A stretch of 32,000 nucleotides of DNA from Thermodesulfobacterium commune DSM 2178 (GCF_000734015.1 NZ_CP008796.1:870001-902000); one strand, 5' to 3'; shown: positions 5,297 through 31,733, counted from the stretch's first letter. Numbers and translations are program-made. Notes: generated from the sequence alone by a model not told the origin.

Positions 5297-5997
5297 GGGT
5301 TGGTTCTTATTTCTTTTTTTTGAATATAGTATAGCAAAAGATTGATCAAAAAAGAGATAGAAAGAAGGATTATACCTAAAGCAAGGGCAAGCTCGAAGTT
5401 TCCTTTATCGGTTTCCAAAGCTATGGTGGTAGTCATAACCCGGGTATAACCGGCGATATTTCCTCCTACGATCAAAATAGCTCCTACTTCAGCCATTACC
5501 CTTCCTAATCCACCCAAGATCCCTGTAAATATCCCATAGCGGGCTTCTTTTATCAAGGTCAAGGTAATCTGGAAAGGAGTAGCTCCAAGGGTTTTGGCCG
5601 TAAGTTTGATTATAGGGCTAACCTTTCTTACAGAGGCTTGAGAGATAGAAGCCACTATAGGAAAAGCCAGGATAAACTGTGCGATTACCATAGCGGTAGG
5701 GGTATAAAGGAGGTTTAAAAAACCTAAAGGCCCACTTCTTGAAAAAAGCATATAAAGAAAAAGACCAACCACCACAGGAGGCAGCCCCATCCCGGTATTA
5801 AAAAAAATTATAACCAAACTCTTACCTGGAAAATCTTTCATTCCTAAGAAGGCCCCAAACGGAACTCCAAAAAAAGAAGCTAATAAAATTGCAGAAAGAG
5901 ATACTTTTAAAGAAAGCAAGATGATCTCAAGAAGTTCTCTATCTAAATTAACGATAAGAAAAAAGGCCTGTTTAAAAGCCTCTATCAAAAAATCCAT
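5293..5997 (-). CDS. tupB: tungstate ABC transporter permease
   Basis: 234-aa polytopic membrane protein of the binding-protein-dependent permease type, sandwiched between tupA and tupC. Confidence 0.8.
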   Translation of the reverse strand: MDFLIEAFKQAFFLIVNLDRELLEIILLSLKVSLSAILLASFFGVPFGAFLGMKDFPGKSLVIIFFNTGMGLPPVVVGLFLYMLFSRSGPLGFLNLLYTPTAMVIAQFILAFPIVASISQASVRKVSPIIKLTAKTLGATPFQITLTLIKEARYGIFTGILGGLGRVMAEVGAILIVGGNIAGYTRVMTTTIALETDKGNFELALALGIILLSISFLINLLLYYIQKKEIRTNP

Positions 5998-5999
5998 GG

Positions 6000-6815
6000 C
6001 TACCTATACTTAGGGATAAAAAGTACGTTTCCCAAGTTATCTTTAAAAGATCCTATGAGTTTTTGTCCCTCAGGAGAGGTAATCCAGTCTATAAATTTCA
6101 TAGCCCCTTCATAGTTTACATAAGGATGCTTTTTAGGATTTACAGCCATAACGCTGTATACATTATAAAGAAGAGGATCCCCTTCAAAAAGGACAGTTAA
6201 ATATTTTAAACGGCCTTTCGTAGCAAGCCATGTTCCCCTATCAGTAAGGGTGTAAGCGTCTTTTTCGTTAGCTATAAATAAAGTCTTTTCCATCCCCTGA
6301 CCAGACTCCAGATACCAGGGTTTTCCTTTAGGATTAAGGCCTGCTAATTCCCATATTTTCAGTTCTTTAAAATGGGTCCCTGACCTATCTCCTCGGGAAA
6401 CAAAAAAAGCTCTGGCTTGGGCAATCTGTTTAAAGGTAGAAACCACGTCTTTAGACCCTTTTATCTTAGCTGGATCATGCTTAGGACCAACGATGATAAA
6501 ATCGTTATAGCACACCTCTTTTCTATTAACAAAAAACCCTTCTTTTATGGCTTGAAGCTCAAGGTCTTTTGCATGAACAAACACTGCATCCACATCTCCC
6601 CTTTTCCCCATTTCAAGCACAGCCCCTGTGCCTCTGGCAACCACCTTTACCTTTATTCCGGTCTTCTTTTCAAACTGAGGTAAAAGATAACTTAACAGTC
6701 CTGAATTTTCTACAGAAGTGGTTGTACCAAGAATCAACATTTTTTCTTTAGCAAAGACAGAATCTGTAAAAAATAAAAGCAAAAAAACAACGAGCAAAAT
6801 AGCTTTTATTTTCAT
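6000..6815 (-). CDS. tupA: tungstate-binding periplasmic protein
   Basis: Signal peptide followed by TupA-type motifs: GTTTSVENSGLL, GTGAVLEMGKRGDVDAVFVH, YNDFIIVGP, SRGDRSGT, GQGM. Confidence 0.85.
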   Translation of the reverse strand: MKIKAILLVVFLLLFFTDSVFAKEKMLILGTTTSVENSGLLSYLLPQFEKKTGIKVKVVARGTGAVLEMGKRGDVDAVFVHAKDLELQAIKEGFFVNRKEVCYNDFIIVGPKHDPAKIKGSKDVVSTFKQIAQARAFFVSRGDRSGTHFKELKIWELAGLNPKGKPWYLESGQGMEKTLFIANEKDAYTLTDRGTWLATKGRLKYLTVLFEGDPLLYNVYSVMAVNPKKHPYVNYEGAMKFIDWITSPEGQKLIGSFKDNLGNVLFIPKYR

Positions 6816-6820
6816 GTTAT

Positions 6821-7771
6821 CTACCCCATTGAGGTTTTATTTTTAAGTATTTTTTGTATAAATTCAAGAAGGCCTTCTACCTTTATAGAAAAATCTAAAA
6901 AAAATAGGTTTTCAGACCATGGAAGTTTAACTCCATCTTTTAAGGTGGTGAGGTAGTTTTCTTTAGACGATAGTTCAAAGGCTCGATAATCGTAATGGTC
7001 TGGGAAAGCAATAAAGCGTTTGATTCTAAGACCTAAACGTTTTATAGTATCTAAAAACTGGGTATTATCTCCAAGCCCACAAAAGGCTATAAACTCTTTT
7101 TTTGGAGGAGACACAGGCTCTAACCTGTAATTTAAAACCTGCCAGTTTTCTCGGTAAAGCTTAAACACTGGTTTTTGGTCAAACTCAAAATCAAAAGGGA
7201 AAAGTTCTTGATAGGTAAGGATAAAGGCGGTAGCTCTTTTTAATCCTGAAAGAGGTTCTCTCAGTTTCCCAAAAGGTAATACCTTTTGGGTCAGGTCTTC
7301 TTTTTTTAAAAGCACAAGGTCTATGTCTCTAAAAAGTCTTCTGTGTTGGAATCCGTCATCAAGAAGGATAAGGTTTGCCCCAAACTCTTTAACCGCTCTT
7401 CTGGCCCCTCTTACCCTATCTTCGTCAACGATAATCACCAGGTCCAAACCTTTTTTCTCAAACACCTTAGCCAAAAAGTAAGGCTCATCCCCTGCCTTTT
7501 CCACCGGCTGAAGAACTTTTTTTTGAAAATAAACTAACTGAAAACCCTTAGATCTTCTTTTATAACCTCTTGATACTATGGCTACCTTACCTAAACAAGA
7601 AAGCTTTTCAGCCAGATACCTTACCAAAGAGGTTTTTCCACTCCCCCCTACAGAAAGATTCCCAACCGAAATAACCGGGACCTCTAACTTAAAACTTTTA
7701 AAAACTCCCAGATCATAAAGAAAATTTCTTAGGGTTATTAAATAACAGTATGGATTTAAAAGATTTAGCAT
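6821..7771 (-). CDS. lpxK: tetraacyldisaccharide 4'-kinase (lipid A biosynthesis)
   Basis: 316 aa. LpxK P-loop VISVGNLSVGGSGKT, then SRGY and DDGFQH motifs. Confidence 0.9.
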   Translation of the reverse strand: MLNLLNPYCYLITLRNFLYDLGVFKSFKLEVPVISVGNLSVGGSGKTSLVRYLAEKLSCLGKVAIVSRGYKRRSKGFQLVYFQKKVLQPVEKAGDEPYFLAKVFEKKGLDLVIIVDEDRVRGARRAVKEFGANLILLDDGFQHRRLFRDIDLVLLKKEDLTQKVLPFGKLREPLSGLKRATAFILTYQELFPFDFEFDQKPVFKLYRENWQVLNYRLEPVSPPKKEFIAFCGLGDNTQFLDTIKRLGLRIKRFIAFPDHYDYRAFELSSKENYLTTLKDGVKLPWSENLFFLDFSIKVEGLLEFIQKILKNKTSMG

Positions 7772-8763
7772 TCCTTAAAAAAACTATGTTTTGTTTGAGA
7801 GTTCTTTTTATTTAAAAGGTCTTTTGTACCCATCACAAAAAAAATGACTCCACCTATCATAGCACTAAGATACTGGCTGAGTATTCTCCAAAGCATGGCA
7901 AAGATCCCTATGGACTCAACAGTTAAAAAATCTTTAAAAACTACTATAGCCCCTAATTCTCCTACCCCACTTCCTCCTGGGGTAGGGCTTATAAAGATAG
8001 CATAGAGTAAAGGGAGTTGGTTTGAAAACAAAGCCCAAAAAGGAGCTTCTTGATGAAAAGCCTTAACCAAAAAAATTCCTACCATAAGAAAGGAAATGTA
8101 CATAAAAAGACTAAAAAGAATGGCTAAAAAAAACACTTTTTTATGGATTTTAAAGAAATTTTTACAAATAAGTAAATATTTCAAAAAATTAAACTTTAAC
8201 CTAAACAAAAACGAACCAGAAACAATCTGAGGTCTTTTTTTAAAAATAACCTTTCCTACTATAAAACCCAAACCAAAAATAGCCAACAAACTTCCTATTA
8301 TCAGTAAAAGCTCTAAGGCCTTTTCAGGATGCTTTACGAGATTTTCTAACATAAAAGGGAAAAACAAAAGATAAAAAACTAAACCGGCAAAACCTTTGAG
8401 GGTAATTACACTCAGAATCTGAGCTATCTCACCTCCTACCCTTCTTAAAGTATAAAAGGGAAAAATCTCACCACCTAAATGAGCAGGGGTTATGGTAGCT
8501 CCAAAGGTGCTTACCAAAGAAACCTGATATCCATACCAAAAAGGATACCTAAAACCCAGAGCCCTTGAAATAAAAAACACCCTTAGGTTATCGAAAGTAT
8601 GAAAAGAAAACAAGGATAAAAAGGAAAAAAGCAGATGCTTCTTGTTTAAAGAAAAAAGAACCCCTTTTAAATTAGGCGGAATATGTCTGAGAAATATGTA
8701 TAAAAAAGAAAGACATACTACCAAAAGGGTTAAAAATATTCCGTAAACAATATTTTTATACAT
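7765..8763 (-). CDS. flippase-like / LPG-synthase-TM family (UPF0104) integral membrane protein
   Basis: 332-aa polytopic protein with the family-typical PTPGGSGVGE motif. Its stop overlaps the lpxK start (ATGCTAA). Confidence 0.7.
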   Translation of the reverse strand: MYKNIVYGIFLTLLVVCLSFLYIFLRHIPPNLKGVLFSLNKKHLLFSFLSLFSFHTFDNLRVFFISRALGFRYPFWYGYQVSLVSTFGATITPAHLGGEIFPFYTLRRVGGEIAQILSVITLKGFAGLVFYLLFFPFMLENLVKHPEKALELLLIIGSLLAIFGLGFIVGKVIFKKRPQIVSGSFLFRLKFNFLKYLLICKNFFKIHKKVFFLAILFSLFMYISFLMVGIFLVKAFHQEAPFWALFSNQLPLLYAIFISPTPGGSGVGELGAIVVFKDFLTVESIGIFAMLWRILSQYLSAMIGGVIFFVMGTKDLLNKKNSQTKHSFFKEC

Positions 8764-8870: not shown

Positions 8871-9365
8871 ATGGAACGAAAAATTTTGTGGGCTCCCTGG
8901 AGAGGAGAATACGTATCAGGTAAAAAAGACCTTGGTTGTATTTTTTGCCCTCCTGAAGGGAATCTGCCTGATGAAGAAAGACTCATACTTTATAGAGATC
9001 CTTTTGTTTTGGTTATCATGAACAAATTCCCTTATAATGCCGGGCACCTTCTGATAGCTCCAAAAAGACATGTGGCTGAACTCGAACAACTAACCCCTGA
9101 GGAGGTCACCGCTTTGATGAAAATGGCTCAAGAAGCCATCAAGATTTTGAAAGAAGTCTTCAAACCCCATGGGTTTAACGTTGGGTTTAACTTAGGGAAA
9201 GTGGCAGGAGCTGGATATCCTGACCATCTACACCTACAAATAGTCCCCAGATGGGAGGGAGATGTTAACTTTTTGGCTGTCCTTGATGAAGTAAGGGTAA
9301 TCTCCCAACATCTTTTAACTCAATACCGTATCTTATTCCCTTATTTTCAAAAAATTAAGCTTTAA
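8871..9365 (+). CDS. HIT-superfamily nucleotide transferase/phosphorylase-like protein with an HxHxQ variant motif
   Basis: 164 aa. N-terminus LWAPWRGEYV, triad region DHLHLQIVPRW. SD AAGGGGGA upstream. Confidence 0.85.
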   Translation: MERKILWAPWRGEYVSGKKDLGCIFCPPEGNLPDEERLILYRDPFVLVIMNKFPYNAGHLLIAPKRHVAELEQLTPEEVTALMKMAQEAIKILKEVFKPHGFNVGFNLGKVAGAGYPDHLHLQIVPRWEGDVNFLAVLDEVRVISQHLLTQYRILFPYFQKIKL

Positions 9366-12428: not shown

Positions 12429-13169
12429 TTATCCGCTATCCTTGTTTTGATTCTTTTGGGCTAAGGCTTTTTCTATTTCTTCGGCGATCTCTATACATGT
12501 TTTTTCAGGAGAAAAGGCTTCTCTGATAGGTCTTCCTATCACAAGATAGTCTGCACCAGAAAGGATGGCTTCATAAGGGGTGACTACTCTTACTTGGTCG
12601 TCCTTTCTTGCTCCTTCCAACCTAATACCCGGGACCACAGTAAACAACTCAGGATAGACTTCTTTTATTTGAGATGTTTCTTTGGCTGAACAAACTATCC
12701 CATCACAACCAGCTTTATAAGCAATCTTGGTTAACCTTAAAACCAAGTCTTTAACCTCCCTTACCAGTTCAGCGTTAAAGCCTAATTCCATAAGGTCTGC
12801 TCTCTCAAGTGAGGTTAAAACCGTAACAGCTAATATTTTTAGGTTGTTGTAAGCGGCACTTACCGCGCTTTTTAAACTTTCTGCCCCAGAAAGAGCATGA
12901 ACGGTTATCCAATCAACCCCTAAATTAGAGGCTACCCTTATAGTCCTAAGTACAGTGTTCGGGATGTCGTTTAATTTTAAATCTAAAAAGATTTTGTTAT
13001 TGCATCTCTTTTTTATCTCTTCTATTACTTTGGGGCCACAACTTGTATAAAGTTCAAAACCAACTTTAAAGACCCCTACCAAGTCCTTTAGTCTATCTAC
13101 CCATCTTAAAGCCTCATCTATAGTTGGGACATCTAAAGGGAATACTATCCTATCACGAGGGTTCATCAT
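12429..13169 (-). CDS. pyrF: orotidine 5'-phosphate decarboxylase
   Basis: 246 aa. Motifs IVFPLDV, FKVG, FLDLKLNDIPNT, LVIGRPI. Confidence 0.92.
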   Translation of the reverse strand: MMNPRDRIVFPLDVPTIDEALRWVDRLKDLVGVFKVGFELYTSCGPKVIEEIKKRCNNKIFLDLKLNDIPNTVLRTIRVASNLGVDWITVHALSGAESLKSAVSAAYNNLKILAVTVLTSLERADLMELGFNAELVREVKDLVLRLTKIAYKAGCDGIVCSAKETSQIKEVYPELFTVVPGIRLEGARKDDQVRVVTPYEAILSGADYLVIGRPIREAFSPEKTCIEIAEEIEKALAQKNQNKDSG

Positions 13170-13611
13170 GGTTCAACTCTTTTATTTGGGTTAGAAATTC
13201 TTCTACGTCTTTAAAGTCCTTATAAACTGAAGCAAAACGTATATAAGCCACCTTATCCCAAGCCTTTAAAGCCTGCATTACCCGTTCTCCCAGATATCCA
13301 GAAGGCACCTCTTTTTCTCCCCTTTGAATAAGGTCAAGCTCAAGCTCGTTTACAAAACTTAAGATAGCCTCTTCGCTGATAGACCTTTTGTGACAAGCCT
13401 TTCTTATGCCTGAAATAAGCTTTTCCCGATTATAAGGTTCTCTTCTTCCATCCTTTTTAACTATCATGATATCTAACTCAAGTTTTTCATAGGTAGTAAA
13501 CCTGTATCCACAATTGGTACATTCTCGCCTTCTTCTTATGGTATACCCTTCTTCTATAACCCTTGAGTCTATGACTTTGGTTTCTAAGACCTTACATCTT
13601 GGACATTTCAT
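13153..13611 (-). CDS. nrdR: transcriptional repressor NrdR (zinc ribbon + ATP-cone)
   Basis: 152 aa. MKCPRC...VIDSR...RRRRECTNCGYRFTTYE, followed by an ATP-cone. Overlaps pyrF by 17 nt. Confidence 0.93.
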   Translation of the reverse strand: MKCPRCKVLETKVIDSRVIEEGYTIRRRRECTNCGYRFTTYEKLELDIMIVKKDGRREPYNREKLISGIRKACHKRSISEEAILSFVNELELDLIQRGEKEVPSGYLGERVMQALKAWDKVAYIRFASVYKDFKDVEEFLTQIKELNHDEPS

Positions 13612-13669: not shown

Positions 13670-14632
13670 CTAAACTAACTTGATAATTTTAGCGACAAAA
13701 AAGCCTACGGCATCTATTTTATGAGTATAATACCTTTTAGTAAGCCTTAGGTCTGGATGATAAGGTTTGCCTTCCCATTCAGTAACTCCTTCATGATAAG
13801 GAAGAGGAGAAACCCAATCTACCAGTTTAGCCTGTCTTTTTCGCAAAAGATAGTCTACTACTTCCTCGTTTTCTTTTGGGTTTATCGTACAGGTGCTATA
13901 AACCAACACCCCTCCTGGAGATAAAAGGTCAAAGGCTCTTACTAACAAACCCTTTTGAATAGATTGAAGGTTGGTTTTACCATGTCCTTTTTGATAAAGT
14001 ATTTCACCTTCAAGCCCTACCCTATATCTTCCTTCTCCAGAACAAGGGGCATCGACCAACACCTTATTAAAAGGAATCCCAAAGGGGAACTGTTCTCCTC
14101 GATAACGGGTAGTTATGGCAGAAGCAACCCCTAAACGTTTAAGATTGGCTACCAAAGCGGTTAAACGGTCTACTCTTTTGTCGTTAGCTACCACGGTAGC
14201 TTTATCTTGGGTTAAAATGGCTATAAGACAAGTTTTCCCTCCTGGAGCAGCACATAAATCAAGCACTAAATCTCCTGGTTTAGGATCAAGGGCTATTACA
14301 GGAAGACTACTCGCTAAGGTCATAGAATGGATTAAACCTAAACTATACTCCTCTAAATTTCCTAACGAAACCTCTTCGTTGTTAACCACCCTATAAAAAA
14401 AAGGAACCTCTTGAACCGGTTCAAACTGAATATTTTTTTGTCTTAAAATTTCTAAAAGACGCTCCTTCTCCTCGTGAGTTCTTATCTTTAGGGTGTTTAT
14501 ACAAAAATACTGACGATGCTGTTTTTTTAAACATTCTAAAAACTCTGAATAATCAGGGATCAAATCCTGATATTGTGCAAAATACTCTTTATAGTCCAAA
14601 GGTCTGTGGTTTTTAACCCTTTCCTTTCCCAT
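13670..14632 (-). CDS. NOL1/NOP2/Sun-family RNA (cytosine-C5)-methyltransferase (RsmB/RsmF-like)
   Basis: 320 aa. SAM site DLCAAPGGKT, motif IV VLVDAPCSGEG, motif VI LVYSTCT. Confidence 0.85.
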   Translation of the reverse strand: MGKERVKNHRPLDYKEYFAQYQDLIPDYSEFLECLKKQHRQYFCINTLKIRTHEEKERLLEILRQKNIQFEPVQEVPFFYRVVNNEEVSLGNLEEYSLGLIHSMTLASSLPVIALDPKPGDLVLDLCAAPGGKTCLIAILTQDKATVVANDKRVDRLTALVANLKRLGVASAITTRYRGEQFPFGIPFNKVLVDAPCSGEGRYRVGLEGEILYQKGHGKTNLQSIQKGLLVRAFDLLSPGGVLVYSTCTINPKENEEVVDYLLRKRQAKLVDWVSPLPYHEGVTEWEGKPYHPDLRLTKRYYTHKIDAVGFFVAKIIKLV

Positions 14633-15272
14633 TCAACAAAACCTCTTTAAGCTCGGTATGGTCTTTTACTATCAGGTCTGCCAACCTTAGGTGTTCCTCA
14701 GGTAAGGTGGTAGTAATAGCTACACAAAAAAGATTTGCCCTTTTGGCTGAAGTCACTCCTGCAGGAGAATTTTCTACCACCAAACCTTGTTCTATCGAGA
14801 CATTAAAAGCCTTTAACGCCTCTAAATACGGATCTGGATGAGGCTTTCTTTTCTTTATTTTATCCCCTGTAAGTACTACCGAAAAATAAGAATAAAAACT
14901 CTTAGGTAAAACTTTCTCTAAAATTTCTGCATGAGAGCTGGTAACCAGGGCTAAACCTTTCTTTTCTTTTTTTAAGGTTTCTAAAATACCTGGAACCTCA
15001 GGAAAAGGTTTGACTTTCGAGGCATAACGACTAAGAAAAATAGCCTTTTGTTTTTTAAAGAGAGCCTCGAAGAAATCTTTGTCTATGTTAAATCCTTTTT
15101 GCAGAAAAATGTCTCGGACCATCTCAAACTCTATAGCCCCTTCGTATAGATACACCTCTTCTTCTTTAAACTTTATACCATATTCAGCCAGAGCCTCTAT
15201 CCAGGCTTTAGCATGATAAGGCATACTGTCTATTAGAGTTCCGTCAAGGTCAAAAAAAACAAAGGGCTTCAT
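14613..15272 (-). CDS. HAD-superfamily phosphatase (beta-phosphoglucomutase-like subfamily)
   Basis: 219 aa. Motif I FFDLDGTLIDS, motif II LVTSS, later K...P...ENSPAG. Overlaps the downstream methyltransferase gene by 20 nt. Confidence 0.85.
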   Translation of the reverse strand: MKPFVFFDLDGTLIDSMPYHAKAWIEALAEYGIKFKEEEVYLYEGAIEFEMVRDIFLQKGFNIDKDFFEALFKKQKAIFLSRYASKVKPFPEVPGILETLKKEKKGLALVTSSHAEILEKVLPKSFYSYFSVVLTGDKIKKRKPHPDPYLEALKAFNVSIEQGLVVENSPAGVTSAKRANLFCVAITTTLPEEHLRLADLIVKDHTELKEVLLNGKGKG

Positions 15273-22069: not shown

Positions 22070-23617
22070 TTAAATTTTTAAAAATTCAACAAGACTTTTC
22101 ATAAGGGTTTCTACAGGATAGGTTGTGTCTAAAACCAACAAAGGAGAACATTCCTTTGGGGGTTCAAACTTATCTTTTTGAGCAAGATAAATATCCCACA
22201 AAGCATCAGAACAGGTATTTTCTTTTCTCTTAAATAACCTTTCCCTAACTACATTATCTTCAGCGGTACACCACACCCAAAAAACCTCCGCCTTAACCTC
22301 TTTTATCCCCTCAAGCAACCAGCTTCTGTATTTTTTATCTCTAAACGTAGCATCAATTATTACATCTCTCCCATAACTAAGCTCTTCCTTAGCCATCTCT
22401 ATCATTTTCTTGTAAGTTTTTTCAGTAATCTCTGGGGTATAAATACCCTTTTCAAACTCTGCATAATAATGCTTAGATTCTGGCAAAGACAAAAGACGTT
22501 TTCTGGTTATGTCTGAAGAAAGGTAAACCGCAGGGAGCTTAGACATAAGGTTTTGCGAAAGAAAGCTTTTACCAGTACCTGAAAGCCCCATAAATACTAT
22601 TAGCTTGGGAATACCCTCTGCATATTGATAAGCAAGGTCAAAATATCTTCTAGCTTGTTCCAAAAATTCGTATTTTTCAGGCCTTATTTGTTGGGTAGAG
22701 GCATAGGTAAAACATCCTATCTTACCCCTCACATAAGCCCGATAACATTTATAAAAATTCAAAAGTTTGTTGATCCCCTGGTCTTGGCTCTTAGAAACAT
22801 ACTGAGTTATAAAATACTCAGATAGACTTCTTTCTCTATAAAAATCTAAGTCCATAGCCAAAAAAGCTATGTCTGAACACACATCACCACACCTAAACCG
22901 TTCGTTAAACTCTATACAATCAAAGATATAAACCTTGTTTACATTCTCAAAACAGATGTTAGCTGAATATAAATCTCCATGTCCGTCTCTGATAAATCCC
23001 TTATCTATCCTTTCTTGAAACAAGACTTGATTTTCTTCTAAGAACTTGCGTGTAAATTGTATTATATGTTCGTATTTATATTTGGCTAAAGCTAATCCGA
23101 CAAATTCTTTGGTTTGAGCAAAATTTTCTTCAGTATTAAACCTGATAACCTCTATCCTTCCATAAGAGTTTACCCTTTCCCCAGTTTCTGCTTTTTGATA
23201 GAAAGGCACCAACACTGAAACTATAGAGTCTATATGAGCTTCAGTTACTTTCTTTTCTTTTAAAAGATTAACCATCATCCCTTCTTCAGGAAGTTTCTTC
23301 ATCTTTACGGCATATTCTACTATCTCCCCTTCAACCTCAAACTTATATCCCTCAGAAGTTTTTACCACAGAAACAACTCCTAAGTAGATTTCGGGAGATA
23401 ATCTTTTGTTTAAGATCACCTCTTGTTCACAAAAATATTTTCTCTTTTCTAAAGTAGTGTAATCTAAAAAACCAAAGTTAACTGGCTTTTTTATTTTGTA
23501 AACGAACAGGTCTGTGATAAAAACATAGGATATATGAGTTTGAACTACCCTTAAAGTTTGAGTAGGATGTGGGAAAGAGTAAACATTTATTAACTGTTCC
23601 CAGGCCTTTGGTTCCAT
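22070..23617 (-). CDS. two-kinase fusion: aminoglycoside-phosphotransferase-like (protein-kinase-fold) domain + P-loop (AAA_33-like) kinase domain
   Basis: 515 aa. N-terminal half has the HGDLYSANI catalytic loop and a DCIEF metal-binding region. C-terminal half has P-loop GLSGTGKS. Confidence 0.75.
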   Translation of the reverse strand: MEPKAWEQLINVYSFPHPTQTLRVVQTHISYVFITDLFVYKIKKPVNFGFLDYTTLEKRKYFCEQEVILNKRLSPEIYLGVVSVVKTSEGYKFEVEGEIVEYAVKMKKLPEEGMMVNLLKEKKVTEAHIDSIVSVLVPFYQKAETGERVNSYGRIEVIRFNTEENFAQTKEFVGLALAKYKYEHIIQFTRKFLEENQVLFQERIDKGFIRDGHGDLYSANICFENVNKVYIFDCIEFNERFRCGDVCSDIAFLAMDLDFYRERSLSEYFITQYVSKSQDQGINKLLNFYKCYRAYVRGKIGCFTYASTQQIRPEKYEFLEQARRYFDLAYQYAEGIPKLIVFMGLSGTGKSFLSQNLMSKLPAVYLSSDITRKRLLSLPESKHYYAEFEKGIYTPEITEKTYKKMIEMAKEELSYGRDVIIDATFRDKKYRSWLLEGIKEVKAEVFWVWCTAEDNVVRERLFKRKENTCSDALWDIYLAQKDKFEPPKECSPLLVLDTTYPVETLMKSLVEFLKI

Positions 23618-23723: not shown

Positions 23724-23770
23724 GGTTTTACATTTAAACAATATTAAGAAACTTTTTGAAAGGGAGTAGT

Positions 23771-26137
23771 ATGAAAGAAGGATTAGAAGTTAATTTTACA
23801 GAGGTTTCGGAAGGGGAGATCATAGACGTTCCTGAAGTTTTACCCTTAATGGCTATAAGAGACATCGTCCTTTTCCCTTCGATGGTAATCCCCCTTTTTG
23901 TAGGAAGGCCAAAATCTTTAAAAGCAATAGAGGAGGCATTAAATAAAGATAAACTAATCGTTCTTTCTACACAGAAAAACTCTCGTATAGAAAATCCCAA
24001 ACCCGAAGATATTTATAAAATCGGAACGATCGGACTTATCCTTAAAACCCTCAATCTCTCTGAAAACCGTCTAAAAGTAGTAGTCCAGGTGCTTTCAAGA
24101 TGTGAAATTCAAGAATTTTTAGAAACGGAGCCTTGTTTTAGGGTTAAAATAGAACCTTGTAAAGAAAAGGAACCAGAAATCATAACCCCTGAAATAGAAG
24201 CTTTAATACGCACAGTTAAAGAAAATACAGAAAAGTTATTGGCATTAAAAGGTATTTTAAATCCAGAGATTTCCACAGTTGTTCATTCTATAGAAGAACC
24301 AGGAAGACTCGCAGACCTTATCACAGTCTACCTTAAATTAAAGGTCAAAACCGCCCAGGAACTTTTAGAAACTTTAGATGGAGTAGAAAGGCTTAAAAAA
24401 ATTTCTGAGATCCTCCTACAAGAAATAGAGATCACCACCCTTCAAAACAAAATCCAAGCCCAAGCCCAAGAAGAAATTGGGAGGTCTCAGAGGGAATATT
24501 TTTTAAGAGAACAACTAAGGGCTATAAAGAGGGAGTTGGGAGAATTTGAGGATGTTGAAGACGAGATTGAGGAGTTAAAGAAAAAGATTAAAAAAGCCAA
24601 AATGCCTAAGGAGGTAGAAAAGGAGGCGTTAAAACAACTTAAGAGATTAGAATACATGCATCCTGACTCTTCTGAGGCAGCGGTAATAAGAAATTACCTC
24701 GAATGGTTGATAGATCTTCCTTGGAATAAGTCTACCCGAGACAATTTAGACCTAAAACATGTTAAAAAAGTTTTGGACAAAGACCACTATAACTTAGATA
24801 AGGTAAAAGACAGAATAATTGAGTTCTTAGCGGTTAAAAAAATTAATCCTAAGGCTAAAGGTGCCATCCTTTGTTTTGTAGGACCTCCTGGGGTTGGAAA
24901 AACAAGTCTTGGAAGATCCATTGCTGAAGCCTTAGGTAGAAGATTTGTCAGGGTAGCCTTAGGTGGTGTAAGAGATGAAGCTGAAATAAGGGGGCATAGA
25001 AGAACCTATGTAGGAGCTTTGCCAGGAAGGATCATTCAAGGAATAAAACAAGCTGGGGTAAACAACCCGGTGTTTTTACTTGATGAAATAGATAAACTGT
25101 GTAGCGATTTTCACGGTGACCCTGCAGCAGCTCTTTTAGAAGTTCTTGACCCAGAACAAAATAAAGACTTTGTAGACCATTATTTAGACGTGCCCTTTAA
25201 CTTATCTAAGGTTCTTTTTATAGCTACAGCTAACATGACAGAACCTATACCCCGGGTACTTTTAGACAGAATGGAAGTAATCTATCTTTCAGGATATACC
25301 TATCAAGAAAAATTAGAAATCGCCAAAAGACACATCCTGCCTAAACTCTTAAAAGAACACGGACTAAAAAAAAACATCCTTAAAATCTCTGACGAGGTTA
25401 TTCTAAAAGTTATCGAAGAATATACTTACGAATCAGGGGTACGTGAGTTAGAAAGAAAGCTTGCAGCTATCTGTAGAAAGATAGCGAGAAAACTTGCTGA
25501 AGGAGAAAAAGGCCCTTTTAGCGTTACCGAAGAGAATTTAGTAGAATTTTTAGGGCCTCCTGAATACATAGAAGAACTTAAACAAGAAGAAGATGAAATA
25601 GGAGTAGCAACTGGACTTGCCTGGACCCCCAATGGTGGAGAGGTGCTCTACGTAGAGGCGGTAGTTATGCCAGGGAAAGGTAATCTAATTTTAACAGGGC
25701 ATTTAGGAGAGGTGATGAAAGAAAGCGCCCAGGCAGCTTTATCCTATATTCGTGCCAAGTATAAAGAGTTGGGGATTGACCCTAAGTTTTATACAAAGTA
25801 TGACATCCATGTGCATGTACCCTCTGGGGCCATACCTAAGGATGGACCAAGTGCTGGGATTACTATAGCGGTAGCGATGATATCTGCCTTAACCCAAAAG
25901 CCCATTTCCAAAGACTATGCGATGACTGGAGAAGTCACCCTTAGGGGTAAAATTCTTCCTGTAGGTGGGATAAAAGAAAAAAGTCTTGCTGCCTTAAGAA
26001 AGGGGATTAAAAACGTCCTTATTCCTGCAAAAAACTCAAAGGACCTGGAAGATATCCCAAAGGAACTTAGAGAAAAAATAAACTTTATCTTGGTTTCTCA
26101 TCTCGATGAAGTTATAAAATTAGTTATCAAAAATTAA
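23771..26137 (+). CDS. lon: ATP-dependent Lon protease (LonA)
   Basis: N-terminal LON domain, Walker [10 protein letters not shown], Walker B LLDEIDK, protease site [10 protein letters not shown] prefer the ATG at 23771, 4 nt after AAGGGAG, over the track's TTG at 23756. Confidence 0.96.
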
Positions 26138-26212: not shown

Positions 26213-26794
26213 ATGAATGAAAATTTCAACAATAAAAAAGGAAGAAAACCTAAAGAAACTCCAGAAAGTCGCAAACGTGAGCTTTTAGAAGCAGTCGATG
26301 AAAACTGCAACCCCATCACCATCCTAAAAAGAGAGGAAATCCATCAAAAAGGCTATTTTCATAAAACAGTGCATATTTTTTTGTTTAACAAAGAAGGAGA
26401 AATCTATCTTCAAAAAAAATCTAAGTTGGTTGAGGAAAACCCTGGTTTGTGGACTTCCTCTGCTTCGGGACATGTGTTGGTAGGAGAAAGCTTTTTAACC
26501 ACTGCTCAAAGGGAATTAAAAGAAGAACTGTCTATAAGAACAAAATTAGAAGAGGTACTTCGTATCACTCCAAAAGATTTTAACAACACTATAGACTGTT
26601 TAGTCCTTTTTACAGGAACTACTAGTAAAATACCTAAGCCTAATCCTTTAGAAATAGAAACTGGAGGGTTTTTTCCTTTAGAAAAAGTGGATAAGTGGAT
26701 ACAGAAAAATCCAGAAGATTTTACTTTTTCTTTTAGGTTGTTATGGCAACTTTATTGGAAGGTTATGACTCAAAAAGCTCTGAAGGGAAGATAA
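26213..26794 (+). CDS. Nudix hydrolase (IDI-like subfamily, lacking the isomerase catalytic Cys)
   Basis: Nudix box GHVLVGESFLTTAQRELKEELSI. WTSSASGH sits where type-1 IPP isomerases have a Cys. Lys/Arg-rich N-terminal extension of about 25 aa. Confidence 0.8.
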   Translation: MNENFNNKKGRKPKETPESRKRELLEAVDENCNPITILKREEIHQKGYFHKTVHIFLFNKEGEIYLQKKSKLVEENPGLWTSSASGHVLVGESFLTTAQRELKEELSIRTKLEEVLRITPKDFNNTIDCLVLFTGTTSKIPKPNPLEIETGGFFPLEKVDKWIQKNPEDFTFSFRLLWQLYWKVMTQKALKGR

Positions 26795-27440
26795 GACCTT
26801 CTTTTTCGATGATAGTTTTTAACAGGTCTAAATCTCTATTTCGTATATATTGAGGTATAGGAGCCATTGCAAGCCGATGCAGTTTAATCTCTTTTTCTGT
26901 GGGAGAAAGATTTAACTCAAGGATTTGTTTTCTTAAGTTCTCCATAAGTTTTAGGTATATTTCATATTCTGGGCCAAACTGCATTTCTAAACTTTCTCTT
27001 ATCCTTCTTGCTACCGCAGGGCTTGCCCCAGAAGTAGAGATGGCTATGGTTAAACTTCCTCTTTTTACCACAGAAGGCACGATAAAACTGCAAAATTCAG
27101 GAACATCTACCATGTTACAAAATACCCTTTTTGCGTTAGCTTCGTCATATATAGACCTTTGGGTAGAAGGGTCATTGGTTGCAGCAACCACCAACCAGGC
27201 TCCTTCAAGGTCTCCTGGCTGATAAATCCTTTTTTCCCAGAGTATCTGACCTTCTTCAGCTAACTTTTGTAAAACTGGAGTAGCTTCAGGAGAAATCAAC
27301 TTAACAAAAGCTTTAGCCTGAAGCAAAGACAAAACCTTCCTTTCACCAACTTTTCCTCCTCCTATAACCACACAAAGCTTCCCTTCTAAGTTTAAAAAAA
27401 CCGGAAAATAGACGTTAGTCAACTTCTCCCCATCCTTCAA
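26763..27440 (-). CDS. siroheme-synthase N-terminal-domain protein (precorrin-2 dehydrogenase / sirohydrochlorin ferrochelatase, CysG-N/Met8/SirC family)
   Basis: 225 aa. FPVFLNLEGKLCVVIGGGKVGERK NAD-binding N-terminus, and SPAVARRIR. TTG start at 27440, 7 nt after GGAGG. Confidence 0.85.
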   Translation of the reverse strand: MKDGEKLTNVYFPVFLNLEGKLCVVIGGGKVGERKVLSLLQAKAFVKLISPEATPVLQKLAEEGQILWEKRIYQPGDLEGAWLVVAATNDPSTQRSIYDEANAKRVFCNMVDVPEFCSFIVPSVVKRGSLTIAISTSGASPAVARRIRESLEMQFGPEYEIYLKLMENLRKQILELNLSPTEKEIKLHRLAMAPIPQYIRNRDLDLLKTIIEKEGLIFPSELFES

Positions 27441-28578
27441 GTTTAGACCTCCAAAACTGAGTAGCCTTAGGGTATAGTTTTACAAATTCCACTTTTAAAT
27501 AGCCTTTTTCTTTTACTACCTGTTTAACCTCGATGTTTATCTTTGCTGCCCTAAAATGAGCAAGCATAGCCAGATAACTGCTCTCCTTTTTAAACCTTAC
27601 CCTAAAGGTTTCGCTTACCACCTGATTTTTTTCAAAAAAACTTAAAACTTCTTCAAAAAGATTTACAGGTAGTTTATTATAAACCTCTTCTTTAAATTCT
27701 TCAAATTCATAAAGGTTCAGAGCAAGCCTTATCAATCTTAGGTAAATAAAATGAGGATCTACCTCTCCCAAGTAAGGAAAGACTACCCTTAAGTCCTCAA
27801 GATTAGAAAATGGAGTCACGTATTTAATCCTGTATTTCCCATCTTCGGACTTAAAAACTACCCCTTCTCTTTTTTCTTGGTGGTAACGCCTTAAAAGTTC
27901 TCTTATGTTTTCATAATCCTTTACCGGGTCAAAAGGCCCATAGATTTCAGGGGCGTTAAAACTATAGGTTTCAAGGAGATTCAACTTTTCTGACTGAGAC
28001 AAAAATCCTCCTCCACCTGTTTTCATAAAATCAAAAACAAAGTAGTTTACATCCTCTTTGATATAAGCAGGATATTCACTAACAAAAGGATTCTCTGGTC
28101 CGGCTACTTCAGCACAAACCACCAAATTTGGATGTTTCTCAAAAAACTCAGGAAGATTAGGTAAAAAATCCTCCCATCGATCGGTAGCAAAAGGACAGAT
28201 GAATCCTCTTCGGGTAAAACCTAAAATTTCATCTCCTACTTTAAAAAGTCTTACGTTATACCCTTCTACCTTTTCTTCAGCATAAAAAGGAGAAGTCATA
28301 TATCTTACCAATCCCGTTTTTAATACATAAACCCTGGGAATCTGAGGGTAACCTCTTACCAAAACCTGGTCGTTAAAAAAAGTTCCCATAGGGAAACTTT
28401 TAAAATCCTTGTTTAGCCTAAAAAAGCCTTTATCTTTCCAGGTAAAAAACAAAATTTTTCCTGTTTGTAAACCTTTTTCCCATTCCTCTAAGGGATACCT
28501 TTTTAAATCTGGATTTTTCTTCCAGCAGTGTTGAAAATACTCCCTTACTTCTTTTTCATTCTCGGTAAAGGTTAACAT
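27415..28578 (-). CDS. ATP-dependent RNA ligase, Rnl3 (Pab1020/MthRnl-like) family
   Basis: 387 aa. Nucleotidyltransferase motifs I EEK(103)VEGYNVR, III YFVFDF, IV REGVVFK, V YRIKYV. The N- and C-terminal extra domains are sized like the archaeal homodimeric ligases. Confidence 0.75.
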   Translation of the reverse strand: MLTFTENEKEVREYFQHCWKKNPDLKRYPLEEWEKGLQTGKILFFTWKDKGFFRLNKDFKSFPMGTFFNDQVLVRGYPQIPRVYVLKTGLVRYMTSPFYAEEKVEGYNVRLFKVGDEILGFTRRGFICPFATDRWEDFLPNLPEFFEKHPNLVVCAEVAGPENPFVSEYPAYIKEDVNYFVFDFMKTGGGGFLSQSEKLNLLETYSFNAPEIYGPFDPVKDYENIRELLRRYHQEKREGVVFKSEDGKYRIKYVTPFSNLEDLRVVFPYLGEVDPHFIYLRLIRLALNLYEFEEFKEEVYNKLPVNLFEEVLSFFEKNQVVSETFRVRFKKESSYLAMLAHFRAAKINIEVKQVVKEKGYLKVEFVKLYPKATQFWRSKLEGWGEVD

Positions 28579-29611
28579 ATCCCTTCTCCCCTTCTTTGCC
28601 TTCGATGGTAATTTTTAACTCAGGTAAAAACTTAGGGATCAACCAAGCTTGAGTAAGAAGATGTTTGGTCACCTTAGCCACAGAAAACCTAAAAATTTTA
28701 GCAGACCGCAGTTTTAAAAGGGCTAAACTTATAGGTATCAAGATCTGGTCTGCCAGATGTTCTTCAAACTGGGTTTTAGTGCTTAAAAAATTTTTCCATT
28801 CTCTTGCTACCTTTTTTCCTACCTCCTCTGCTGGATAACCACGTTTTCCTAGCTCGGTAAATCCAGCATATAAAACCTTTTCCTTATTCAAAGCCTTTAA
28901 GAAAACAAAAGTTCCGTCAGATCGAGACTTCACTCTTTCTTTATAGACTGTAAGGTTCTCACAGTTTGGCAACTCTGACAATACACCTTTTAGTTGCCTT
29001 TCTACGATATGTACAGGAAGTCTTTCGGAAGATACGCTATAGATGATAATGTTCTCAGGAATAAAATACTCTGGCAGAGCTGGCAAGAAAAATTCCTCCC
29101 AAGGTTTAATGAAAGCTCTTATCTTCCCCCCACCTGCAGAATAAAACCCATAGGCTTCAAGATAAAGGTCTACCTCCAGACCAAAAAGTTTGGCCATTGG
29201 TAAAAAAACTTCTTTTACATAGTGATAACAGGGACTAAAGGGAACATGGGTACCTCCTTTGATTACCACTTCTCCACCTTTGTTCAAACTTAGAGGATAC
29301 ACAACTGTCTGGAAAAGAAGCAAGGTTGAGCCTGCAGTTCCTATATCAAAGGAATAGTTGCACCTTTCTGGAAGTTTTTTGGGAATAAAAACTATCTCTT
29401 GAGAACCTAACTCATCCCCTTTTACCTCTGCCTCTGAAAGATAAGCTACTGCTTTCACACAAGCTAAATGCTGAGGCTGAAGACCTGGTTTAGGTCTGTT
29501 AGCTCTGATATTAACAATTCTAAAAGGTTTGCCGGTGACTACTGAAAGCGATAAAGAAGTACGTAAAACCTGACCCCCACCTTCACCATAAGCACCATCT
29601 ATCACAAGCAT
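28556..29611 (-). CDS. rtcA: RNA 3'-terminal phosphate cyclase
   Basis: 351 aa. IDGAYGEGGGQVLRTSLSLS..GKPF.I.NIRA.R..PGL..QH N-terminus and the His-bearing EEHLADQILIP motif. Confidence 0.9.
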   Translation of the reverse strand: MLVIDGAYGEGGGQVLRTSLSLSVVTGKPFRIVNIRANRPKPGLQPQHLACVKAVAYLSEAEVKGDELGSQEIVFIPKKLPERCNYSFDIGTAGSTLLLFQTVVYPLSLNKGGEVVIKGGTHVPFSPCYHYVKEVFLPMAKLFGLEVDLYLEAYGFYSAGGGKIRAFIKPWEEFFLPALPEYFIPENIIIYSVSSERLPVHIVERQLKGVLSELPNCENLTVYKERVKSRSDGTFVFLKALNKEKVLYAGFTELGKRGYPAEEVGKKVAREWKNFLSTKTQFEEHLADQILIPISLALLKLRSAKIFRFSVAKVTKHLLTQAWLIPKFLPELKITIEGKEGEKGYVNLYRE

Positions 29612-30333
29612 TTTTCCTCAAACTCTTTTTCCATCTTTTCGATTTCGCTTATCAAAAATTCTACTAACCACTCTACCATCTTTTTGCCTTTTTCAACAGA
29701 TGCCTTTCTTGGGTCACCCCATATTCCAGTACTCCAGTATTTCTCTTTCTCAAACACCACCCTAAACTTAGGAAATTTAGGATAATCTTCAAATCCCCCG
29801 TCTTTTACCAGATCTGGTTTTAGATAAAGCATAAGGGAGGTTTCCCATTCTCCTGCATGAGAATCCTCCTCAGAGATATCCATATTTTTTAAACAAGGCC
29901 TAAGTAGCTGAAAAATGTCGGCTACAAAAAAATTACAATAAGGAACTAACGATATAAAAGATTCAGCTGCGTCTACCAAATAGGCGTTGTGGGTACCTCC
30001 TGCATGTCCAGAAAGAACCATAAAATTTTTAAAACCACAAAGATAAAACTGATAAAAAAGGTTTATCATCAATTTTTTTAATACCTCTCCGGTAATACTT
30101 ATCGTCCCAGGAAGGGTGCTCGTACTTCTACAAAGACCATAATAAATCGGTGGGGCTATAAGAACCTTTTTTTTCTCGGCTACCTTTTTACAGACCTCAT
30201 AGATAGTATAAAGGTCTGTAGCTAAAGGTAAATGAGGACCATGAGCCTCAACAGAACCTACAGGGAAAATAACGGTCTTTACTTGTTTTTTAGCCTCTTC
30301 AAATTCTAAAGAAGTAATCTCCTCTACTAACAT
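29602..30333 (-). CDS. creatininase-family (creatinine amidohydrolase / ArfB / MftE fold) metal-dependent hydrolase
   Basis: 243 aa. Motifs PVGSVEAHGPHLPLATD, LSGHGG-like SGHAGG, and SHAGEWETS. SD AAGAGG upstream. Confidence 0.8.
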   Translation of the reverse strand: MLVEEITSLEFEEAKKQVKTVIFPVGSVEAHGPHLPLATDLYTIYEVCKKVAEKKKVLIAPPIYYGLCRSTSTLPGTISITGEVLKKLMINLFYQFYLCGFKNFMVLSGHAGGTHNAYLVDAAESFISLVPYCNFFVADIFQLLRPCLKNMDISEEDSHAGEWETSLMLYLKPDLVKDGGFEDYPKFPKFRVVFEKEKYWSTGIWGDPRKASVEKGKKMVEWLVEFLISEIEKMEKEFEEKCL

Positions 30334-30392
30334 AATTTAACCTCTTGGAACTATCGATATTTTGATTATTTGAATTATAATTAAAATTTGCT

Positions 30393-31733
30393 ATGAAGAA
30401 AAGGGTTTATATAAAAACTTTTGGTTGTCAAATGAATGAAAACGATTCAGAAAAGGTACTCATTCTTTTAAAAGAAGAGTATGTTCCTACCGATAACCCT
30501 GAAGAAGCAGACCTTATCATAGTAAATACCTGTTCTGTAAGGGAAAAACCTCAACACAAAGTCTATAGTGAGGTAGGGAGGTATAAACCCTTAAAAAAGA
30601 AAAAAAAACATCTCCTCATAGGTATTATAGGATGTGTTGCCCAACAAGAAGGAGAAAACCTGATTAAAAAACTTCCCTATGTAGATTTCGTGTTAGGAAC
30701 CCAAAGTTTTTATCAAATAAAGGAGGTTATAACTAAACTTCAAAAGGATCCTAAACCTATTGTGTTAACCGAATTAACTAACGAGTTTAAACCACCTTTA
30801 GTGCTTCCTGAGGAGACTTTATCTAAAAACACCGAAAAGGTTACTGCTTTTGTCACGATAATGCAAGGATGTGATAATTTTTGTTCTTATTGTATCGTTC
30901 CTTATGTCAGAGGAAGAGAAACAAGTAGACCTCCAGAAGAAATCATAGAAGAGATAAAGAGATTGGTAGAATTAGGGGTAAGGGAGGTTACCCTTTTAGG
31001 ACAAAACGTAAACTCCTATGGGCTAAAGGAAAAGGGTTATCCTGATTTTCCAGAACTCTTGAACCAAATCGCAGCCATAGAAGACTTATGGAGAATAAGG
31101 TTTACTACCAGTCATCCTAAAGACCTTTCAGAGAAACTAATAAGAACTATGGCTGAAAATCCCAAAATATGTCATCATATCCATCTCCCTCTTCAGGCTG
31201 GTTCAAACAGAATATTAAAACGAATGAACCGTAAATATACTAAAGAAGAATATTTAGAAAAAGTAGCAAAACTTAGGGAGCTAATTCCTGACATAGCTAT
31301 TACTACCGATATCATTGTAGGATTTCCAGGAGAAACTGAGGAGGATTTTGAAGAAACTTTAGAAATGCTAAAAACAGTAAGGTACCATGAAATTTTTTCT
31401 TTTAAGTACTCAGATCGTCCGTTTACCACAGCTAAAAATTTCGAGGACAAAATTCCTGAAGAAGAAAAAGAGATAAGACTAAAACTTGTTCAGGAACTAC
31501 AAAAAACTATTACCCAAGAAATCTACCAACAATATGTAGGGAAAGAAATGGAAGTGTTGGTTGAAGGTTTTAGCTCAAAATCTAAAACTCAACTTATGGG
31601 ACGTACCAGCACAAACGTAATAGTGAATTTTTACTCTCCAAGGCTTGACCTAAAAGGTAGATTAGTTAAGGTTCGAATAGAAGAAGCAGGAAAACACTCT
31701 TTAAAGGGTAGGTATCTTGAAATTCTAAAATAA
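30393..31733 (+). CDS. miaB: tRNA-i6A37 methylthiotransferase (radical SAM MTTase)
   Basis: 446 aa. N-terminal FGCQMNENDSE...VNTCSVREK, radical-SAM CDNFCSYC, C-terminal TRAM domain. Confidence 0.92.
   Translation: MKKRVYIKTFGCQMNENDSEKVLILLKEEYVPTDNPEEADLIIVNTCSVREKPQHKVYSEVGRYKPLKKKKKHLLIGIIGCVAQQEGENLIKKLPYVDFVLGTQSFYQIKEVITKLQKDPKPIVLTELTNEFKPPLVLPEETLSKNTEKVTAFVTIMQGCDNFCSYCIVPYVRGRETSRPPEEIIEEIKRLVELGVREVTLLGQNVNSYGLKEKGYPDFPELLNQIAAIEDLWRIRFTTSHPKDLSEKLIRTMAENPKICHHIHLPLQAGSNRILKRMNRKYTKEEYLEKVAKLRELIPDIAITTDIIVGFPGETEEDFEETLEMLKTVRYHEIFSFKYSDRPFTTAKNFEDKIPEEEKEIRLKLVQELQKTITQEIYQQYVGKEMEVLVEGFSSKSKTQLMGRTSTNVIVNFYSPRLDLKGRLVKVRIEEAGKHSLKGRYLEILK

Follow-up and report, generated by a model that had tools for sequence, protein, structure and literature searches.

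The genome of Thermodesulfobacterium commune DSM 2178 raises the question of why a gene for an RNA 3'-terminal phosphate cyclase (RtcA) should overlap one for an ATP-dependent RNA ligase of the Pab1020/MthRnl type (Rnl3), given that the expected product of the cyclase is not a substrate of the ligase. We analysed a 32,000-nt stretch of this genome (the window; coordinates without a locus number refer to it), in which four genes lie on the minus strand: first a gene for a creatininase-family (PF02633/COG1402) metal amidohydrolase (29602..30333, 243 aa), followed by rtcA (28556..29611, 351 aa), rnl3 (27415..28578, 387 aa), and, last, a gene for a SirC/CysG-N-like precorrin-2 dehydrogenase/sirohydrochlorin ferrochelatase (26763..27440, 225 aa, TTG start). 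The first-pass annotation had proposed that the creatininase-fold protein, RtcA, and Rnl3 work together on RNA ends. The analysis described here narrows this four-gene, three-enzyme cassette to a two-gene cyclase–ligase pair. We hold with moderate confidence that RtcA–Rnl3 is a real functional module, of which rtcA and rnl3 are the core genes, and that the creatininase-family gene and sirC are passengers.

Conservation of the rtcA–rnl3 pair in Thermodesulfobacteria

Relatives were collected by a ligase-alignment scan with one genome per GTDB species (464 relatives), and the window proteins were searched by tblastn against 80 species-level loci and against loci fetched by protein identity. The Thermodesulfobacteria ligase clade comprised loci L001–L049, 46 of which had enough upstream sequence to be judged. 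In 42 of these 46 loci (L001–L036, L039, L041–L043, L047, and L048), rtcA was located directly upstream of rnl3 on the same strand. The closest ligase relative was that of Thermodesulfobacterium thermophilum DSM 1276 (99% identity), in which RtcA and the creatininase-family protein showed 91% and 95% identity to their window counterparts, respectively. Spacing was close in 41 of the 42 loci. Measured from the rtcA stop, the rnl3 start lay at −14 nt in approximately 25 loci; other loci had −20, −23, or −53 nt (overlaps ranging from −14 to −56 nt), and in the Thermodesulfatator group the value was +4 to +64 nt. At the rtcA–rnl3 junction of related genomes, a GGAGG-type Shine–Dalgarno (SD) sequence was kept 6–8 nt upstream of the rnl3 start.

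The genes flanking the pair were far more variable. Upstream of rtcA, we found the creatininase-family gene in 12 loci, a FabG-like SDR gene in approximately 17 Caldimicrobium-type loci, and an oligopeptide-type ABC ATPase gene in approximately 10 Thermodesulfatator/Thermosulfurimonas loci. Downstream of rnl3, sirC was present in 30 loci, all from one family (Thermodesulfobacterium and Caldimicrobium-type), and a convergent permease gene or miaB was found elsewhere. In Thermodesulfatator and Thermosulfurimonas, rtcA was retained, while the creatininase-family, sirC, Nudix, and lon genes were all absent within 8 kb. The first-pass annotation asked whether the gene linkage extends beyond its source genome; it does for rtcA–rnl3, but the creatininase-family gene is restricted to one genus and sirC to one family. 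These results indicate that the conserved unit is RtcA–Rnl3 and that creatininase and SirC have no conserved link to it.

In a neighbour-joining (NJ) tree of the ligases, every RtcA-linked sequence fell in one clade; the linkage therefore arose once. The pair originated where the Thermodesulfobacteria Rnl3 clade begins, and it has been kept while each flank was replaced at least three times.

Domain composition and catalytic residues of RtcA and Rnl3

Profile searches with family cut-offs agreed with the earlier assignment of the four proteins to creatininase-fold, RtcA, Rnl3, and SirC-like families. RtcA scored 306 bits with TIGR03399 (cut-off, 250) and contained PF01137 (1e-65) with the PF05189 insert (5e-10). 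The Rcl1 model TIGR03400 gave 34 bits against a cut-off of 228, so the protein is distinct from Rcl1. The closest structure in PDB was RtcA of P. horikoshii (4o89, 4e-61), followed by that of E. coli (1qmh, 2e-48). His-317 in KHLLTQ aligned with the nucleophile His-309 of the E. coli enzyme (SCHLLTN), and Glu-10, Arg-17, Arg-36, Arg-39, Gln-47, and His-48 were invariant in an alignment of four sequences including E. coli RtcA. RtcA thus retains its catalytic set, consisting of His-317 and the Arg, Glu, and Gln residues. The motifs GGGQVLRTSLSLS and EHLADQ, quoted in the first pass, were both present. EHLADQ is conserved; however, it is not the catalytic motif, since the nucleophile resides in KHLLTQ. 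RtcA converts 3'-phosphate (3'-P) ends, and slowly 2'-phosphate (2'-P) ends, to 2',3'-cyclic phosphates (2',3'>P), and also adenylylates 5'-phosphate (5'-P) ends (PMC3854526).

Rnl3 contained PF09414 and PF18330, the Pab1020 C-terminal domain (Lig_C; 2.8e-28), and scored 296 bits with TIGR01209 (cut-off, 137). It matched the structures 3qwu (1e-73), 8uce from Palaeococcus pacificus (1e-66), Pab1020 2vug (7e-61), and MthRnl 5d1o (3e-30). The full set of ligase motifs read in the first pass was found again, namely EEKVEGYNVR (Lys-103), FVFDF (Asp-183), EGVVFK (Glu-238, Gly-239, and Lys-243), and RIKYV (Lys-252). Lys-103, Arg-123, Asp-183, Glu-238, Gly-239, Lys-243, and Lys-252 were invariant in an alignment of 15 bacterial homologues. 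Rnl3 thus retains Lys-103, motifs III–V, and the Pab1020 C-terminal domain, and by analogy with its characterised relatives it would act as an ATP-using homodimer that circularises single-stranded 5'-P RNA. MthRnl also cyclises 3'-P ends and removes a 3'-terminal A, leaving 2',3'>P (PMC5599603), and in certain members of the family, among them the Palaeococcus pacificus Rnl3, good adenylylation goes with weak ligation (PMC12153264). The ligase family is small, with 298 representatives among 1.84 billion proteins. The RtcA-linked ligases of Thermodesulfobacteria carried an N-terminal extension of approximately 25 residues (residues 1 to approximately 30 of the window ligase) and a C-terminal KLEGWGEVD tail. 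Both were missing in the alignment from the bacterial ligase clade linked to HARP, a nuclease described below.

The creatininase-family and sirC genes

The creatininase-family protein matched PF02633 at 5e-56 and remained under the NCBIfam cut-offs of TIGR04448 (113.5 vs 235 bits), MftE (108.6 vs 172 bits), and IolN (76.7 vs 245 bits). An AlphaFold model built with 23 orthologues had a predicted local distance difference test score (pLDDT) of 93.4 and TM-scores of 0.84–0.87 to 3a6k, 1j2t, and 3no4 (0.87 to 3a6k). The metal-ligand residues Glu-29, His-31, Asp-40, His-110, His-159, and Glu-164 were invariant in the 23 orthologues. However, Glu-122 of creatininase is replaced by Gly-112 in a GHAGG motif, so the full binuclear-metal ligand set is incomplete. 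The protein has the core ligand pattern of the creatininase superfamily and belongs to it, but it is not a creatinine amidohydrolase (EC 3.5.2.10) proper. A phosphoesterase-like fold was considered and rejected: Foldseek with this model returned creatininase structures only, and no phosphoesterase was among the significant matches.

The creatininase-family gene adjoined rtcA solely in the genus Thermodesulfobacterium (12 of 12 species genomes), and none was found within ±8 kb of the RtcA–Rnl3 pair in the sister genera. Orthologues with 49–60% identity occurred in Caldimicrobium thiodismutans, Thermosulfurimonas, and Thermodesulfatator, where they adjoined Mfd or AhpC genes; a source name for this family reads 'Fe-dependent FAPy formamide hydrolase'. 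The orthologues located elsewhere, together with a predicted fold that is purely creatininase-like, remove the sole support for an end-healing role of this enzyme.

SirC scored 164 bits with TIGR01470 (CysG N-terminal; cut-off, 62) and matched PF13241 (3e-32) and PF14824 (8e-10). No sirC was found within 8 kb of the pair in Thermodesulfatator and Thermosulfurimonas. SirC is a sirohaem enzyme, as expected of a sulfate reducer, and a neighbour at the family level only. We judge the creatininase-family enzyme and SirC to be small-molecule housekeeping proteins that share the transcript by dense gene packing.

Organization of the four genes

Direct reading of the minus strand bore out the overlaps reported in the first pass and the SD sequences embedded in the upstream genes. 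The creatininase-family stop and the rtcA start overlap by 10 nt (29602..29611, ATGCTTGTGA), rtcA and rnl3 by 23 nt (28556–28578, ATGTTAACCTTTACCGAGAATGA, junction 28556..28590), and the rnl3 stop and the sirC TTG start by 26 nt (27415..27440, TTGAAGGATGGGGAGAAGTTGACTAA). SD-like elements were AAGAGG ahead of the creatininase-family start at 30333, GAGGA ahead of the rtcA start at 29611 (inside the creatininase-family gene), GGGAGAAGGG at 28581–28590 ahead of the rnl3 start at 28578 (inside rtcA), and GGAGG 7 nt upstream of the sirC TTG at 27440 (inside rnl3). An alternative in-frame sirC TTG at 27422 would reduce the overlap to 8 nt, with poor SD spacing.

A 59-nt spacer (30334..30392) separates the cluster from the divergent miaB and carries TATAAT (30374–30379) and AAGAGG (30341–30346), both on the minus strand. 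It would be the sole non-coding space able to drive transcription of the four genes, and a promoter is placed there tentatively; a promoter scan of the spacer gave a plus-strand site only. As to internal promoters or terminators that could split the cluster, consensus matches did not exceed the numbers expected by shuffling (7 vs 11.2 promoter-like sites and 5 vs 5.0 terminator-like sites). A TTGAAG-17-TATAAT match inside rnl3 (27676–27704) is a putative promoter only. The four genes are thus probably a single tightly packed, co-translated unit, in agreement with the translational coupling that had been proposed.

With longest-ORF starts, the window has 21 same-strand junctions, and the genes overlap at 7 of them. 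Among these are the functionally unrelated minus-strand pairs NrdR/PyrF (17 nt; 12429–13611) and HAD hydrolase/RsmB/F-type methyltransferase (20 nt; 13670–15272), as well as LPG-synthase/LpxK (7 nt). Since unrelated genes also overlap in this window, the overlaps argue for co-expression rather than for a common pathway.

Absence of RtcB and RtcR near the cluster, and the literature

The cluster had been described as RtcB-less, and this was confirmed for its surroundings: tblastn with E. coli RtcB found nothing at E ≤ 1e-3, either in the window itself or in the 86 related loci (±8 kb). The arrangement under RtcR control is also missing here. No RtcR was found in the window, and the matches at some other loci cover the generic σ54-activator AAA+ region (residues approximately 160–440) and lie several kb off. 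No σ54 promoter was found upstream of the cluster, and TGGCAC-N5-TTGCW had 10 matches against 7.3 expected. The first-pass annotation took pairing with RtcB to be the classical state of RtcA. However, bacterial rtcA and rtcB are usually unlinked, and in archaea the two never cluster (Das & Shuman 2013, PMC3854526). Unlinked RtcA is therefore the rule rather than the exception, and to find no RtcB beside RtcA is nothing unusual.

We found no description of an RtcA–Rnl3 operon in the searchable literature, although an earlier mention in comparative RNA-repair work is possible. The pairing is apparently undescribed. A study of HARP and its associated ligases names RtcA in its supplement as an enriched domain, not as an operon partner of Rnl3 (PMC12153264).

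Neighbours of Rnl3 in other lineages

Outside Thermodesulfobacteria, a convergent PF08745 (HARP) gene was located directly downstream of rnl3 at 23 loci, and, with one exception, the 3' ends of the two genes were separated by −38 to +22 nt. The PF08745 neighbours matched structures of 'RNA-free ribonuclease P' (HARP) at 1e-94 to 1e-48. This tail-to-tail arrangement occurred in Aquificota, Nitrospirota, and delta- and gamma-proteobacterial genomes, with convergent HARP genes at L050, L052–L055, L057, L058, L060, L062–L066, L069, L070, L073, L076, L078, L080–L082, L085, and L086, and also at L091–L093. No HARP gene was found in the window or within 8 kb in L001–L049.

The HARP–Rnl3 association is already published: 89% of HARP-positive genomes carry an Rnl3-type ligase, and in bacteria the pair is co-localised in 80% of cases (Seshadri & Gopalan, mBio 2025, PMC12153264). 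According to Table S1 of that study, Thermodesulfobacterium, Caldimicrobium, Thermodesulfatator, and Thermosulfurimonas have both HARP and the ligase, but the two are not co-localised there. The supplement counts the RTC insert domain as one of the functions that come next in enrichment in archaeal genomes with HARP. The statement in the first pass that Rnl3 is mainly archaeal thus needs qualification, since bacterial Rnl3 with HARP as partner had been documented.

Other neighbours of Rnl3 are also RNA-end enzymes. The 580-aa protein P0394 has an N-terminal PIN_5/HARP domain (38–213) and a complete Rnl3 (293–576), and is either a HARP–Rnl3 Rosetta-stone fusion or a merged gene call. In Nitrospirota and delta-proteobacterial metagenome-assembled genomes (MAGs), a DHH-DHHA1-CBS-PolyA_pol gene overlaps the rnl3 start (L050:1–2487 and L085/L086:5369–8044, plus strand). 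The encoded protein belongs to the tRNA nucleotidyltransferase/poly(A) polymerase family, a hint of some connection with tRNA 3'-end metabolism. In the bacterial MAG of L092, a gene for a Clp1-type polynucleotide 5'-kinase (PF16575, 98 bits; 5004–5885, plus strand) is located directly upstream of rnl3 (6001–7140). With HARP convergent downstream, L092 presents a kinase–ligase–nuclease trio, and a Clp1-type kinase beside Rnl3 was seen in this lineage only. The partners of Rnl3 elsewhere, namely an RNase P-type nuclease, an RNA kinase, and a CCA-family nucleotidyltransferase, suggest that its substrates are tRNAs or similar stable RNAs.

A subset of Aquificaceae has the directon RtcA–GyrA–PurS–PurQ–Rnl3 with convergent HARP (L081/L082:4643–10692; also L055, L060, L066, L069, and L073), in which rtcA lies 3–6 kb upstream of rnl3, so that the two genes are near each other in a second phylum, with housekeeping genes between them. 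The RtcAs of these directons showed 34–39% identity to the window RtcA.

Possible roles of the RtcA–Rnl3 pair

We infer a division of labour. RtcA and Rnl3 would be made together and act on one shared pool of stable RNAs that have been processed or broken and are probably tRNA-related, splitting the work by end chemistry. Rnl3 would adenylylate 5'-P ends and seal or circularise RNAs bearing a 3'-OH, while RtcA would turn 3'-P (and slowly 2'-P) ends into 2',3'-cyclic phosphates, which Rnl3 could not join. Cyclisation may in this way prevent futile ligation and tailing, and leave the end for RtcB or a phosphoesterase encoded elsewhere. In a narrower variant, RtcA, acting as a 5'-adenylyltransferase, would provide adenylylated RNA (AppRNA) to Rnl3. 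This reading is favoured by the RNA-end enzymes found beside Rnl3 outside the class, that is, HARP, the Clp1-type kinase, the DHH-CBS-PolyA_pol protein, and the HARP–Rnl3 fusion.

Several observations weigh against a functional module. The cyclase product is not expected to be a ligase substrate, Rnl3 would by analogy already have both accessory activities, and apparently no step strictly needs both enzymes. Overlap is routine in this window among functionally unrelated genes, and overlap alone is little proof. Because the pair has a single evolutionary origin, the 42 genomes are not independent observations. Adjacency was lost in four MAGs of the clade (L038, L040, L045, and L046), and in L007, a Thermodesulfobacterium-clade MAG, a gene for a 511-aa PMT_2 glycosyltransferase (6430–7965, plus strand) separates rtcA from rnl3. 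No RtcA–Rnl3 fusion was found among the best 150 of the 298 family representatives. The one clearly archaeal locus, PAB1020 of P. abyssi, has neither RtcA nor HARP within 7 kb. The loci L091–L093, obtained by the archaeal-query search, have HARP but no RtcA; their origin is uncertain or bacterial, since L092 and L093 have bacterial-looking neighbours and their ligases cluster with delta-proteobacterial ones in the NJ tree.

The routine overlaps, the single origin, the lost or interrupted adjacency, the lack of a fusion among those representatives, and the loci without adjacent RtcA also speak for an operon of convenience, in which none of the four genes cooperate, a 1.7-Mb thermophile simply packs same-strand genes as it does NrdR/PyrF and HAD/RsmB-F, and the adjacency of rtcA and rnl3 is an inherited accident that arose once and was later lost or interrupted. 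The mixed directon of Aquificaceae, in which rnl3 is accompanied by gyrA, purS, and purQ, fits this explanation as well. However, at a ligase identity of 47–53%, all other window neighbours have been replaced, and rtcA is still directly upstream of rnl3 with a conserved SD sequence or overlap. In addition, both enzymes act on RNA termini via AMP transfer, the neighbours of Rnl3 in other phyla are RNA-end enzymes, and RtcA is statistically enriched in HARP/Rnl3-positive archaeal genomes (PMC12153264 supplement). We therefore regard mere convenience as possible but unlikely.

A stronger form of cooperation would be an undescribed, obligate two-enzyme RNA-end pathway, with a histidine-AMP cyclase and a lysine-AMP ligase working one after the other on the same RNA molecules. 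RtcA might make AppRNA or cyclise 3'-P ends, and Rnl3 might seal, circularise, or 5'-cap the RNA. We consider this rather doubtful. If true, it would imply stable RNAs that are circular or protected at both ends (5'-App, 3'>p) at 70–80 °C, a physiological role of RtcA independent of RtcB, and a bacterial RNA-circularisation or capping system evolutionarily linked to the HARP–Rnl3 module.

It is also conceivable that RtcA is chiefly a 5'-adenylyltransferase making AppRNA, which Rnl3 seals in its ATP-independent step 3, so that activation is separate from joining. E. coli RtcA adenylylates 5'-P RNA and DNA at 0.18 per min, and a supply of AppRNA to ligases was floated speculatively (PMC3854526). 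The weakly ligating Rnl3 enzymes mentioned above would suit such a hand-off, and the order rtcA–rnl3 with translational coupling would fit a fixed stoichiometry. However, Rnl3 keeps Lys-103 and all motifs for adenylylating itself and RNA, so that a hand-off is not required, and we consider it improbable as the main activity.

The three-enzyme pathway, in which the creatininase-fold metallohydrolase would open 2',3'>P or remove a terminal phosphate so that Rnl3 could seal RtcA-processed RNA, is very improbable: the first position of its gene in the cluster, the 10-nt overlap with rtcA in a genus where all 12 species genomes keep the linkage, and the retention of most metal ligands speak for it, but the association is confined to that genus, its orthologues lie beside Mfd and AhpC in Caldimicrobium and Thermodesulfatator, the pair in sister genera has other upstream genes, the predicted fold matches structures of the creatinine amidohydrolase family only, and the characterised relatives (creatininase, MftE, and IolN in NCBIfam) are small-molecule or peptide hydrolases, mostly amidohydrolases.

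Comparison with known RNA repair systems

The RtcA–Rnl3 pair resembles the E. coli-type rtcBA/RtcR/σ54 system in the probable co-transcription of a 3'-phosphate cyclase with an RNA ligase and in the expected chemistry of both enzymes, in which the intermediates are covalent nucleotidyl-enzymes and activated RNA. Why the two should be paired is equally puzzling in both systems, as the ligase does not strictly depend on the cyclase (PMC3854526). In contrast, Rnl3 is an ATP-dependent, lysine-AMP ligase that joins 5'-P to 3'-OH ends, whereas RtcB is GTP-dependent, uses histidine-GMP, and joins 3'-P or 2',3'>P to 5'-OH ends. Here, moreover, the cyclase gene comes first, there is no RtcR, CARF domain, or σ54 promoter, and the cyclase product would not be joinable by the ligase.

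The HARP–Rnl3 system (PMC12153264) shares the ligase family, and the genera of Thermodesulfobacteria are positive for both genes in Table S1 of that study. It differs in that HARP is not co-localised in Thermodesulfobacteria, where the immediate co-directional partner is RtcA. Among archaeal Rnl3 enzymes, Pab1020, MthRnl, T. kodakarensis Rnl, and Palaeococcus pacificus Rnl3 have the same domain architecture as the window ligase, all nucleotidyltransferase motifs, and 35–45% identity over nearly the full length. By homology, RNA circularisation, 3'-P cyclisation, and 3'-A trimming are expected of the window ligase. Unlike the archaeal enzymes, it resides in a bacterial host without C/D-box sRNAs, the in vivo targets in Thermococcales (PMC9014305), and its gene has the adjacent rtcA that PAB1020 lacks.

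Both the pair described here and the healing-and-sealing cassettes (T4 Pnkp–Rnl1 and bacterial Pnkp/Hen1) place an ATP-dependent RNA ligase beside an enzyme that remodels RNA termini. The healing partners, Pnkp and Pnkp/Hen1, make ligatable 5'-P and 3'-OH ends, whereas RtcA makes non-ligatable 2',3'>P.

The cellular role of RtcA has been puzzling since its discovery, since RtcB does not need RtcA and the genes are mostly unlinked. RtcA–Rnl3, in which the cyclase has long been retained in evolution in probable translational coupling with a different, ATP-dependent ligase, offers a second, independent genetic context for asking what the cyclase does, with Thermodesulfobacteria proteins that should be thermostable and readily purified. 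It also extends the HARP–Rnl3 story, as one bacterial class swapped a neighbouring RNase P-type nuclease for a cyclase, and the contexts of Rnl3, taken together, suggest that the bacterial enzyme acts on RNA ends, probably those of tRNAs. The pair is confined to one small thermophilic class, has a single origin, and falls within the published Rnl3/HARP story. The census leaves neither the creatininase-fold enzyme nor SirC in the proposed pathway and so spares effort on the three-enzyme model.

Other features of the window

No Rfam RNA gene was found near the cluster, the tRNA-Leu at 858–944 being far off; repeats in the region were short ones at chance level only, and five local proteins gave no match to the PADLOC anti-phage families. 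miaB (30393..31733, plus strand), which encodes a tRNA methylthiotransferase, is divergent from the cluster. It occurs in a second arrangement in Thermodesulfatator autotrophicus, where it is located on the same strand directly 3' of the pair (L083:9227–10558).

On the other side, a gene for a NUDIX hydrolase (26213..26794, plus strand) is convergent with sirC, and their 3' ends overlap by 32 nt. Its product shows a weak likeness to IPP isomerase, under all cut-offs, and the gene is syntenic with lon (23756..26137 in the window), which lies beyond it, across Thermodesulfobacteriaceae. A 515-aa P-loop kinase (22070–23617, minus strand), with a C-terminal AAA_33 domain and a 330-aa N-terminal part without a family match, was considered as a missing polynucleotide kinase and rejected: its AAA_33/gluconokinase-like matches were weak, it had no match in PDB, and it was syntenic in the two closest genomes only. 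A HIT-family protein (8871–9365, plus strand; NF052622, 154 bits vs a cut-off of 290), encoded approximately 18 kb from the cluster, resembles ATP adenylyltransferase/Ap4A phosphorylase, enzymes of adenylylated-nucleotide metabolism.

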